DNA of 63,982 nt, the filler included, from Reclinomonas americana ATCC 50394 (Eukaryota): the NCBI GenBank assembly GCA_048213135.1. It is 13 parts of 13 records of this genome, joined end to end, with 100 filler letters (N's around TTAATTAATTAA, not from the genome) between each part and the next. Parts side by side here need not be neighbours in the genome. Positions count along the whole stretch, not along the records: positions 43,130 to 52,897 come from AFZH01020348.1; positions 52,998 to 54,772 come from AFZH01020349.1; positions 54,873 to 59,458 come from AFZH01020350.1; 10 more parts are not named here. The stretch is one strand, 5' to 3'. Of this stretch, positions 44,509 to 58,305 are shown one piece after another. Below the pieces are notes generated by a model that ran no database searches, was not told the DNA's origin, and saw nothing but the letters and a program-made list of their open reading frames with translations. The stretch's first letter is position 1; each line of letters starts with the position of its first letter. Both the position numbers and the translations under genes were made by a program.

Positions 44509-47500
44509 TCACTGGTACGAGCACACTTGCGGGTACAGCGTTAGCTTGTACGTGGTAGACGCGTTGGTGTTTTGGTCATCAGACGTCTCAAAACCTCCGA
44601 TAAGTGCGACAGACCTTTGAACGCACGGACAACGGATAAGCGCAACAGTGTGCGACTCAGACATTGTACAGTGCGCCCCAGACACTCACATGCTGTCACC
44701 GGGCCATGGAACTGTCGTTGCCTGTCGGCGACGGAGCTCGAATGCAGTGTTGTTATCCAAGTCGTCGATTACATACTGACTCCAACCCTGATCCGGCGAC
44801 GACAGATCGAGAACCTGAGGCATCGCAAGCAAGGATGAGAGATGCGTGCCGCCATGTGGTGGTGTTTCACATATACCTGTATGTCAGTCGCATAGTCGAA
44901 CGACTGCGTAATGTCGAGGTCGTAGAAATTGTCTGCGATCTGGTGGAATACTCCATTCTGTGTTCATCAGTCGCAGTCAGAGCGGGGTTGGTGTCAAATA
45001 CTCCTCGGGAACAGCTTTTAGAGCACGCACCTGCACACCACCAAATACATACAGCTTGTTGTTCACGACGACAACGTTGCCTTGCACTCGAGGCGTAAGC
45101 ATCGGAGAGAGAGTTGACCTAGACAAGACAAAGTGAGCCCAACGCAAGCAGAAGCCAGTACAGCAACACAATTTCAAAGCACAAACCATTCATGAGATGC
45201 AATTGTGTACGACCATGCTCCGCTGCAAACTGCCGGTCCGTCTTGGATGTTAAGACCACCTACGAAGTAGATTTTGTCACCTTCCGGACTGACGACCTGC
45301 GTTGCTGAAGTAAGCAACATGCAACGTACAACGCGTACAAGTCATTAGATGATCTTACCCCTTGCAAGTGAGTGCAGCTGGTTGGGATATAGTTCGAGCT
45401 GCTGTCGATATTGGCATCGCCCACTGCAAACAGCCAGTGAGTACTCCTCGAAACCCGCAAGAACGCTCTCTAGATGAAACGAACTGTTGCTCATGAATGT
45501 AGAAGCCATAATGTTTTGCATCACCAGGAATACTGAGTCGTCAGTGGGGCTCATCAGCGGGAAATTGCCTGACTGACTCACGTCTGAGGCCCACACGCGA
45601 ATAAGTATATGGTGAGCTCACAAGACAGCCGCACGAGATCGCGCGAATACTGACCCCAGTTGCAATTTGGCGCACTACTGCTACTTCCAACACTGAGCAC
45701 GTTCCCATTCCCATCGGAGCTACTCGAGCAACGCACATCGTGAGATCGTGGACTGACTTGTGACATAACCAAAAGAATTTCACGAGTGCACCCACCTCTG
45801 CCTGCAACAAGAGAATCACAACACGAATAAATCAACTGGCACAAAATACGAACGAGAAAGCAGATCAGGAACTTACATGGTCGACAAGTCATAGGTGACT
45901 TCGAATCCTTGATTTGGCCCGAGGCAGTTATTGCACGAACCTGACGTACTGAATACAGTGCCGAGTACTCGAAACGTGACAGTTGTGTTTTGAATCGACT
46001 TCAAATAAAGAGCTCCGCCCCAAGTGGTGTAACCTATATTGTACGTGCTCCAGACGCGAGCTGTGCGATTTCAAGTGACCGTAAACAAATGTTCCGCGAA
46101 ACGCGAAGAAAGTGTTGATCACACTACCATTTGTATCATAGATCTGAAGCACGGACATGCCGGTGCCAGCGTTGGGTTCTTCGACTGATCCGCCGTAGCA
46201 GAATATCTTATTCGTTGGCGCGTAGCTTACGCACGCTGCAGACGACAGTTAGCAGACCAGCTCATCGCTGTGGACGACATGAGACCAAGCGATCAATCTC
46301 CTCACCAGTCAATGCAGCTGCATTGATCATCTGACCAACTGCCGTGGCTCCCTCAGGAGTGTTCTGCGACAATGTATGAGTGGCTCTGGCAGTCAACATA
46401 ATACGCAATGAAGCGAATTACGAAGCTGAACGAGAATAGTCCAAGATTGCAGCTTGCAGTGCCTGCTGAATCGTCGCATCTTGAACCAAGTTCCAAAGTG
46501 GACTTAGGCGTACTCTGCAATACCATCGAACCGCGTGTCAACACGTGCACAAGCTGCACACATACGCACGCACATGAATGCACGCTTCGTTGACACGCCA
46601 ACACTTACTTGGTGGGCACTGGGAATTGGGAGAGTGATGCAAGCCAGTCACTAAACGGAGCATCGGCAGAAAATGGCGCCGTGGAAGGATTGCCACCGTA
46701 CATGAGAACTTGATAGTGAAAATTAGAGTTGTTGTTCGACAGCATGTCAGACTGAGCGTGTAGGACGTAGATTTTGAGGACGACAACCTGCACCACACAT
46801 ATAGAGCACAGCACGTACCAGAGTATCACCAACGTTTAGTCCTCCGCTGAGAACATTTGCAACTGTCAACTTGACACCAGCAGTCACAGTCGTAGACGAG
46901 GTGCTGGACATTGCGGCTGCATCCCATGAGGCCGCAATGGCTGCAACAAATGCACCGAGATCAGAATTGTTGAGCTCAAAGGGTTCTCTTCAGCGCACAG
47001 AACAAACCAAGATGTCCTCCGACTGCAGCATTGAACAATTAAATCCGAAGGCAGTTAGCAACAACAATGAGTCACTCTCTCTTCTCAAACAAAACCGCAA
47101 CGCACTAAGAGCCTCCAGAACGAAGTGCGTGCCGAAGGCTGAATAACAAAATGATGCGCAAACTTTCAGTAATGTGACAGACAATGATTATAGAAGTGTA
47201 CAGTACAGGCCACCATTGATGAAGCTTGAGAATTGTTGGCAAGTCGAACTGTTGAAGCTTTGCGGCAGCAACAGGAGCGATGACGAAAAGACGTCAGAGA
47301 GCGGCGGAGTCCAAGAGAGGAATGGGCCAGTTTGCCACCTGGAGCAATGGAATGGTAAGAACGATGAATGGACGCACGTAAGGAGGATGACGTAGCGCAC
47401 ATTGCCCGGAAGAGCGCGACATCGCCAGTGGACAGCACAATTGTTGTCGATGAACTCGAGGACCGAGAGTTGTACATAGACACTCCAACGTTCACAGAGC

Positions 47501-48291
47501 CGCTCACAGGAACACCTGCACAAAGGGGGAAAGTGTGTTTGAGTCTGTGCGAGCGAGAGAGAGAGAGAGCGTGTGTGTATGTATGTGTATGCGTGTGCGT
47601 GTGTACAAGTGCTCGTGGATGCAAAAGTTGCGGTGCGTGAACACAGACACGGAAGAGCGCGGTGGGCACCTGGCACAGTAACATCCAGACTGGCAGACAC
47701 TGAGAGTGTCGAAGACGTCTGCTGTGCCGAAGACGCAGCAGTCTCGGAGTGGGATATGTCAGTGGAATCGTCCACGAGCACGGTCAAGAAGTCAGGCACA
47801 GCCGCAGGTTGACCGAGCACGGACGTTTGCGACCGCGACTGAAAAGTGAAAGGCGCAAAAATCGCCTGCCCAGTGATGCCCTCAATCGGTGGGTACAAAT
47901 TCATCGAGTTGAAACCGTAGCGGAACACACTGTCGATTGCCGGGAGAACTGGTGGTGAAGCGGCAACCGCTTGTTGCAAAGCTGTTGAACAAGGCAACAA
48001 GACCATCACGACTGATAATCAATGGAGAATTAAATGCATACAAATTGCGTTGGACACACCTGCTGTCAGCTTGGCAATGAGAACTGCCGCAGCTTGGTCG
48101 GCCGTGGTCATGCCACACGCATCGGTTGTCGTCGAGTTCGTGGGAACCGTCACACCAACTGTTGTAGGGTCCGCACTGAGGGGTGCTGTCGCTGCGCGGC
48201 TGCCCACTGTGTGGGCGGCGGCGACGGCAGCCGTTGTCCACAGCAAAGCGAGCGCGCAAGCGAGCGCGATGAACAGAGCAGCACGCGTCAT
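44509..48291 (-). CDS. Secreted MACPF/perforin-like protein 1 with C-terminal Kelch beta-propeller
   Basis: Signal peptide MTRAALFIALACALALLWTTAAVAA; FRYGFNSM; spliced signature FGTHF-VLEALI-GG; YGGNP...FSDWLASLSQFPVP; Kelch VVVNNKLYVFGG and VALIGG; stop TGA at 44509. Confidence 0.82.
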
Positions 48292-58000: not shown

Positions 58001-58305
58001 CGGGGTTTGTGTCACCATTTGTGTGCGGACCACATCTGTGACCGCGCATGTTATATTGGGGGACGCTGATGCAGACTTGATCCAAAATCGATCACATGCG
58101 CGTGAGTCTCACCAGCGATATCGGGAGGCAAGAAGGAGCCAGACAGGTCTGCAACACCAGCAGCACTCAAGAGGCGCAGGATACCAGTCGGTGAATTTGT
58201 GTCACTACCAGCGCACGACTGAGCACTCGCAGAGTGGCCGGTTGCGCAGAGACTGACAACCAGGAGCAACAAAAAGGAGACTGCATATCTGCTGCCAGGG
58301 CGCAT
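55004..58305 (-). CDS. Secreted MACPF/perforin-like protein 3 with C-terminal Kelch beta-propeller
   Basis: Signal peptide MRPGSRYAVSFLLLLVVSLCATG; AIGAGFDVV; YLLPSTV; FDYYGTSVVMGVTIG; IFGGD..AWVKTIAGNPTIL; RAAFEVAINDYL. Kelch LFVIGG, VMVYGG, IFIFGG, MPLARANATAAHSQGLIVVFGG, FVAIGG; stop TAG at 55004. Confidence 0.82.

Follow-up and report, generated by a model that had tools for sequence, protein, structure and literature searches.

In eukaryotic immunity and predation, proteins with a MACPF domain are the chief pore-forming weapons, and their aim is set by accessory domains. Once the accessory domain has bound the target, the MACPF domains assemble into oligomers; TMH1 and TMH2, clusters of some 50-60 residues that can refold as amphipathic beta-hairpins, then unfurl into a beta-barrel from the MACPF/CDC fold, a bent, twisted four-stranded sheet with flanking helical clusters. 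Hetero-assembly is known for complement C5b-C9, and several animal and plant MACPF proteins are non-lytic. Here we analyse three genes (A, B and C) in a 63,982-nucleotide stretch of DNA from Reclinomonas americana ATCC 50394 (assembly GCA_048213135.1; hereafter the window). The reading that we favour, and hold to be probable, is that they are whole-gene paralogues in an old array (A and B in tandem, C one gene off), each with a signal peptide, a MACPF domain and a Kelch-type propeller, and that they encode propeller-targeted, perforin-like proteins, most likely independent pore-formers.

The likeness to perforin-1 and the MACPF family at large lies in the probable signal peptide, the two TMH-like segments and, after the MACPF domain, a putative C-terminal domain for membrane or target binding. 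The differences are that a Kelch-type propeller stands here in place of the EGF and C2 domains of perforin, that at such low identity no single exon retrieves perforin, and that gene A carries Ser for His in the family signature. With the complement membrane attack complex (C6, C7, C8, C9) the locus shares several divergent MACPF paralogues in one genome, which makes that complex the model for the idea of a hetero-oligomer; unlike it, each copy has its own putative targeting domain, and TSP1, LDLa and EGF domains were not found in the exon and open reading frame (ORF) scans. No match to aegerolysin, TSP1, LDLa, EGF or C2 was obtained among 97 ORFs of at least 75 residues (positions 43130-59458, E up to 0.01), a scan that a partner encoded in short exons could escape. 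Pleurotolysin-type systems are alike in that the membrane targeting of the MACPF protein is supplied by another module (abstract of PMC8624791), whereas here no ORF among the 97 is aegerolysin-like and targeting would be in cis. The nearest functional precedent that we found is PmPV2/PcPV2 of Pomacea snails, in which a lectin with a six-bladed beta-propeller serves to deliver the MACPF chain and the genes form a cluster with tandem duplications (bioRxiv 10.1101/2019.12.23.880021). Tandemly duplicated genes are a feature of both systems, and propeller delivery of a MACPF protein would be another; the PV2 propeller, however, is a separate, disulfide-linked chain of the tachylectin/HydWA type, while the one described here is Kelch-type and lies in the same polypeptide. 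The organism is also another one, and no sequence relationship to PV2 was detected.

The three genes are laid out as follows:

Gene A, 58305-55004, minus strand: 14 exons, 757 residues; GT-AG introns of 54-145 nucleotides; hand-curated
Gene A exons 1-7, minus strand: 58305-58113, 58035-57932, 57833-57286, 57203-56913, 56767-56619, 56544-56437, 56355-56157
Gene A exons 8-14, minus strand: 56089-55947, 55879-55809, 55731-55674, 55603-55534, 55470-55380, 55325-55189, 55115-55004
Gene A domains, minus strand: signal-peptide-like N-terminus, then MACPF core at about 58035-56619 and Kelch-type propeller at 56544-55004
Gene B 5' part, 54583-52998, minus strand: 385 residues; signal-peptide-like N-terminus and MACPF core
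Gene B 5' exons, minus strand: 54583-54367, 54259-54157, 54092-53920, 53850-53783, 53714-53527, 53469-53352, 53286-52998
Gene B 3' part, 52749-51339, minus strand: 331 residues; degenerate Kelch-like propeller
Gene B 3' exons, minus strand: 52749-52641, 52563-52362, 52297-52069, 51974-51921, 51862-51680, 51625-51556, 51487-51339
Gene C, 48291-44509, minus strand: 20 exons, 733 residues
Gene C exons 1-7, minus strand: 48291-48060, 47981-47670, 47515-47401, 47338-47214, 47138-47106, 47022-47008, 46940-46819
Gene C exons 8-14, minus strand: 46751-46609, 46514-46432, 46383-46306, 46235-46125, 46060-45877, 45692-45676, 45583-45485
Gene C exons 15-20, minus strand: 45423-45359, 45296-45211, 45118-45031, 44939-44877, 44814-44690, 44614-44509
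Gene C domains, minus strand: signal-peptide-like N-terminus, MACPF core at about 47981-46432, then Kelch-type propeller

Membership of the MACPF family was assessed on single exons or contiguous ORFs with the Pfam model (PF01823, cut-off 21.5 bits), which matched 4 of the 16 core exons at collinear profile positions:

Gene B exon 5 (53529-53714), minus strand: 29.2 bits, E 1.2e-6, profile positions 42-83
Gene A exon 3, minus strand: 16.2 bits, E 0.012, profile positions 16-89
Gene B exon 7 (52999-53286), minus strand: 14.3 bits, profile positions 146-188
Gene C exon 8 (46611-46751), minus strand: 12.0 bits, E 0.23, profile positions 145-185

In the ORF scans the match of gene B stood at 29.8 bits. 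A profile built from three aligned core exons (A, B and C) had mouse perforin-1 (3nsj_A, 7pag_A) as its best match among solved structures (E 2.5e-7), over residues 162-214, exactly the helix-turn region of the signature; four sequences were listed at E up to 10, and the two besides perforin-1 had E values of at least 0.2. When gene B was left out, the profile of A and C still placed perforin-1 on top (E 0.018). For the GG...W...P block the top solved structure was Mpf2Ba1 (8b6v), an insecticidal MACPF protein, which aligned at the motif with an E of 1.0 that is not significant, and which differs in being bacterial and in carrying a beta-prism C-terminal domain. In the ESM Atlas, gene A exon 3 reached a top score of 0.98, and 18 of its 30 matches fell in MACPF-bearing clusters (the others included Thiol_cytolysin); gene C exon 2 scored 0.91 to an unnamed cluster, followed by Thiol_cytolysin (0.86) and MACPF (0.85), values that serve as leads only.

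The motifs agree with these matches. The family signature is [YF]-G-T-H-[FY], and the His-to-Gly-Gly spacing of seven was measured on the present sequences: [YF]GT[HS]-x7-GG occurs in all three genes, with identical spacing from H/S to GG. Upstream of it stands a GFD, GFD or GFN motif, and GG...W...P is likewise common to the three. The invariant columns of the alignment (GF(D/N), a Cys and a Phe before the signature, [YF]GT, GG, W and P) are known MACPF landmarks and, together with the profile matches and the homology described below, place the family in MACPF. Judged by sequence, gene B clearly belongs to it, with A and C as divergent members whose placement rests on their homology to B and to each other and on the profile matches to perforin-1.

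Aligned across the whole domain, the spliced proteins are 19.5% (A-B), 26.8% (A-C) and 27.4% (B-C) identical, and two-sequence BLASTP related A to C (25% over 346 residues, E 4.4e-6), B to C (E 6.8e-4) and A to B (E 2e-3). A and C have one intron at the same alignment column and in the same phase, and the first intron is in phase 1 in all three genes. The MACPF core and the C-terminal propeller are both common to the three, and A, B and C are therefore whole-gene duplicates; the identical motif spacing at only 20-27% identity argues for long purifying selection. No fourth copy was found in the window with a hidden Markov model of the family itself, which matched 18 of the 1448 six-frame ORFs, all within A, B or C (the next one had an E of 0.17).

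Evidence for the propeller came from the Pfam Kelch_1 model (PF01344, cut-off 20.1 bits). Gene A scored 20.7 bits on the ORF 55338-55511 and 19.7 bits on the exact exon 55380-55469, gene C 21.7 bits in the ORF scan and 23.4 bits on exon 45031-45117, and there were weaker matches to the galactose-oxidase-type, attractin-type and NanM-type Kelch models. A Kelch propeller consists of five to seven tandem blades, in each of which a Gly-Gly doublet and a conserved Trp recur. Six strand-Gly-Gly sites were counted by eye in gene A (a simple pattern search found 4) and about five, again by eye, in gene C; the C-terminus of gene B has kept the strand/Trp rhythm and lost most of the Gly-Gly doublets. 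The C-terminal 331 residues of gene B nevertheless align to the first blade of gene A (32% over 47 residues, E 1.9e-4, two-sequence BLASTP), and the C-terminal tails of all three proteins align with a conserved Cys. On this sequence evidence we regard the three C-terminal domains as homologous Kelch-type propellers that have diverged, the one in B being degenerate.

At the opposite end, the N-terminus in A, B and C alike has a basic residue or two, a hydrophobic core of 12 residues (mean Kyte-Doolittle 2.9-3.7) and small-residue cleavage sites. Each gene also encodes two segments rich in Ser and Thr, 44-64 residues long and placed where TMH1 and TMH2 would lie (boundaries set by eye), in which Ser and Thr make up 27-44% of the residues as against 23-25% overall; strictly alternating stretches within them are clearest in gene C. 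Given the known workings of MACPF proteins, we infer that each protein would be exported via the secretory pathway, that its propeller would dock it on a target surface (glycan or protein), and that the MACPF domains could then oligomerise, with TMH1 and TMH2 unfurling into beta-hairpins to form a membrane pore. Divergent propellers may confer different target ranges, as in prey killing or digestion, or in defence.

An earlier note on this DNA had proposed three co-oriented minus-strand genes, each with a signal peptide, Ser/Thr-rich TMH-like segments, a GF(D/N) motif, the signature or a variant of it and GG...W...P, and had held them too divergent to be recent duplicates. All three genes were found near the positions that it proposed, with signal-peptide-like N-termini (by our own heuristic), with the segments (27-44% Ser and Thr) and with every motif (in the alignment and the hand-built models), and at 20-27% identity they are indeed no recent duplicates. 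The check with PF01823 that it had suggested for the spliced proteins was run on single exons, where it was positive for gene B (29.2 bits) and below the cut-off for A and C. The different C-terminal propellers that it inferred hold in part: the domains have diverged, yet they are homologous Kelch-type domains and not different kinds.

The family is very isolated in sequence, as far as the pieces of A and B and the core profile that were searched can tell. With gene A exon 3 as query, an exhaustive HMMER search of 1.84 billion representatives gave no match at E up to 0.001; word-index searches, in which longer proteins were admitted, gave none for this exon or for the gene B ORF that holds the signature. 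Metagenome scans with the three-gene core profile (149 pattern matches) and with gene B exon 5 (598) yielded no confirmed relative. In a literature search for MACPF together with Kelch, neither word stood in the title or abstract of any of the matches listed (full texts were left unopened), and for MACPF with choanoflagellate the match concerned other domains; a MACPF-Kelch fusion may already exist unremarked in annotated proteomes.

Several points weigh against the favoured reading, and those that concern fold and function are best set beside the alternative that these are non-lytic secreted or surface proteins, serving adhesion, signalling or development, in which the fold was kept as a scaffold. 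Genes A and C stay below the Pfam MACPF cut-off everywhere on their own exons, and the MACPF scores come from single exons, not from the whole domain. Searched singly against solved structures, the exons gave only chance-level matches and no MACPF chain in the PDB, and the AlphaFold2 model of gene A exon 3 (7-row alignment, mean pLDDT 35.9) was too poor for a fold search. The full signature is present in B and C, with Ser instead of His in gene A. No Pfam Kelch match was found in gene B (0 of 5 exons scanned), and in A and C the Kelch assignment rests on one or two near-threshold blades and a repeat pattern read by eye. The signal peptides were judged by a heuristic of our own and no dedicated predictor. 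Pore formation is itself an assumption, since many MACPF proteins are non-lytic. The non-lytic alternative would accommodate the extreme divergence (no match to gene A exon 3 in the exhaustive search, E up to 0.001), the signature His lost in gene A, and the fact that Kelch propellers are mostly protein-interaction modules; all three copies have, however, kept two long Ser/Thr-rich segments at the TMH positions together with the Gly-Gly sites, and B and C the full signature. We consider it rather unlikely, and propeller-targeted pore-formers the better account.

The remaining points concern the gene models, and bear on whether one or more of the genes are decaying pseudogenes, or artefacts of gene modelling or of a draft assembly. 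The models were predicted from the DNA alone, with junctions curated by reading the sequence and then checked by script, and no relatives were found for comparison. Gene B spans an unbridged assembly gap (52898-52997), into which the open frame of its exon 53286-52998 runs; as the flanks of the linker there do not overlap, the continuity of the gene rests on collinearity with A and C, to whose MACPF-region end and first propeller blade the two flanks align. Several weak donors are needed, mainly in the middle of gene C and in the 3' part of gene B (GTCGC, GTGCC), which is the least certain part of the models. The middle of the gene C propeller (46060-45359) is script-derived only and uncertain, and some splice sites of gene A have in-frame alternatives (e.g., acceptors 58065 vs 58035 and 55334 vs 55325).

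Against decay or artefact stand the open frames that run through 14 (A), at least 14 (B) and 20 (C) exons, the GT-AG introns in a narrow size range, the identical motif spacing in copies that are 20-27% identical, and the intron position and phase common to A and C. Within these genes the minus strand of the window has no long open frames; short frames were tiled and joined by introns that in all three genes are GT-AG and 48-184 nucleotides long, with acceptors that are nearly all CAG. The models draw further support from gene C, where the Gly-Gly of the MACPF signature comes from a 15-nucleotide micro-exon (47022-47008) and where ending exon 4 at 47214 restores a spacing from the conserved Cys to the signature identical to that of A and B. 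The signature of gene B is likewise split, by the intron 53526-53470, one codon from the micro-exon spot of gene C and in a different phase. We rate decay or artefact as very improbable, and retain the three paralogues as modelled.

Donor sites in the A, B and C introns vary (GTGAG, GTACG, GTAAG, GTGCG), and GTTCG occurs in 6 of the 44 modelled introns; GTTCG(T) is seen, for example, in the introns 56618-56545, 56156-56090, 55533-55471, 52361-52298 and 52068-51975. As a recurrent donor this is an unusual consensus, which might be useful for identifying the lineage or for training gene finders.

The genomic arrangement has to be read through the assembly. Contigs of 3-10 kb make up the window, joined by twelve identical 100-nucleotide linkers (sites 6143-62570), each composed of 44 N, TTAATTAATTAA and 44 N. 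The features that bear on the spacing of the three genes are:

54773..54872, no strand: assembly linker, flanked by an exact 190-nucleotide duplicate
52898..52997, no strand: assembly linker inside gene B; flanks without overlap, missing sequence of unspecified length
54584..54713, minus strand: A-B spacer, between the A stop at 54714-54716 (left-contig copy, equal to 55004-55006) and the B ATG at 54583
48834..51141, plus strand: intervening gene with fn3-like repeats and, ahead of an Arg run, one hydrophobic segment; outside the MACPF family

Overlapping flanks occur at one junction only (54773-54872), where 190 nucleotides are repeated exactly (54583-54772 = 54873-55062), and this overlap makes the contig with the gene A end and that with the gene B start truly contiguous. 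The distance from the A stop to the B ATG is then 130 nucleotides (420 raw, less the 100-nucleotide linker and the 190-nucleotide overlap), which bears out the spacing of about 130 that the earlier note had reported once the overlap was removed. About 30 nucleotides past the A stop, the spacer also holds a second ATG, upstream of the modelled one and in frame with B, and the true start of B is uncertain. So short a distance suggests either a very compact genome at this place or a transcript common to A and B. The compact three-gene cluster of the note holds for the A-B tandem; C does not adjoin B, a plus-strand gene lying between them at about 48.8-51.1 kb. Its span for gene B (about 51210-54583) was right at the start (54583) and not at the end: the stop codon is at 51339-51341, in a last exon that can be aligned to the tails of A and C with their Cys. 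The fn3 scores of the intervening gene (21.6 and 18.7 bits) are both below the cut-off of 25, and its predicted product resembles a single-pass membrane protein, which might conceivably have a part beside the MACPF proteins, for instance as a receptor or a protective factor.

This arrangement bears on whether A, B and C build one hetero-oligomeric pore in the manner of the complement membrane attack complex, dividing the labour such that, for example, one docks or nucleates and the others are recruited. Such an assembly has a precedent in complement C5b-C9; three divergent paralogues have been kept close together, the 130-nucleotide A-B spacing could enforce co-expression, and the Ser for His in A and the propeller of B (without most Gly-Gly doublets and without a Kelch match) could be taken as signs of subfunctionalisation. 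Each copy nevertheless keeps the full architecture with its own signal peptide and propeller, as independent pore-formers need, and neither a complement-type accessory domain nor an aegerolysin-like partner was seen among the 97 ORFs. The regions upstream of A, B and C have no 7-mer common to all three (B and C have one 9-mer in common, not clearly above shuffles), and an opposite-strand gene separates C from B. MACPF tandem arrays exist without hetero-assembly, the PV2 cluster being an example (bioRxiv 10.1101/2019.12.23.880021). Clustering and divergence are already expected from an old tandem paralogue array. We judge the hetero-pore unlikely. A narrower version, in which A and B (possibly with C) would be co-expressed into a mixed pore, a paralogue with an intact propeller docking and B (degenerate propeller) or A (altered signature) being recruited, seems to us quite doubtful as well. 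No result obtained here favours either version over independent paralogues.

The window as a whole is eukaryotic nuclear DNA with a G+C content of about 54%, in which Rfam and tRNA scans gave no match. At many contig ends stand (TC)n/(AG)n microsatellites, probably the reason why the assembly breaks there. Outside the array the following were recognised:

1086-3068, minus strand: intron-free ORF of 661 residues, TPR_10/TPR_12
7433-9325, minus strand: intron-free ORF of 631 residues, TPR_10/TPR_12 (E 1e-19 to 3e-24 for the two ORFs)
23862-24611, plus strand: MOV10-like helicase piece (MOV10 beta-barrel)
29526-30149, plus strand: glyoxalase-II C-terminus
30668-31321, minus strand: SHIPPO sperm-tail repeat protein
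32242-33237, plus strand: SNAPC3 ORF (E 1.9e-46), whose only database relative is a sponge protein with 39% identity

Unlike the exon-rich MACPF genes, the two TPR ORFs (1086-3068 and 7433-9325) have no introns; they may be paralogues of an NLR-like or NPHP3-like kind. A protein with SHIPPO repeats is a flagellar marker and implies a flagellum, and the source organism is probably a flagellated, intron-rich eukaryote, for which the protist of the earlier note is plausible.

A MACPF domain with a Kelch-type propeller fused in cis would offer one more route for aiming a perforin, parallel to that of the two-chain PV2. Given its strong sequence isolation, the family may be the sign of a toolkit specific to one lineage, in a eukaryote that has been poorly sampled. 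Should the copies not cooperate, the array would be old but ordinary, made of paralogues from a known toxin family; should they cooperate, they would constitute an independent origin of a complement-like, multi-component attack complex built from propeller-fused subunits.

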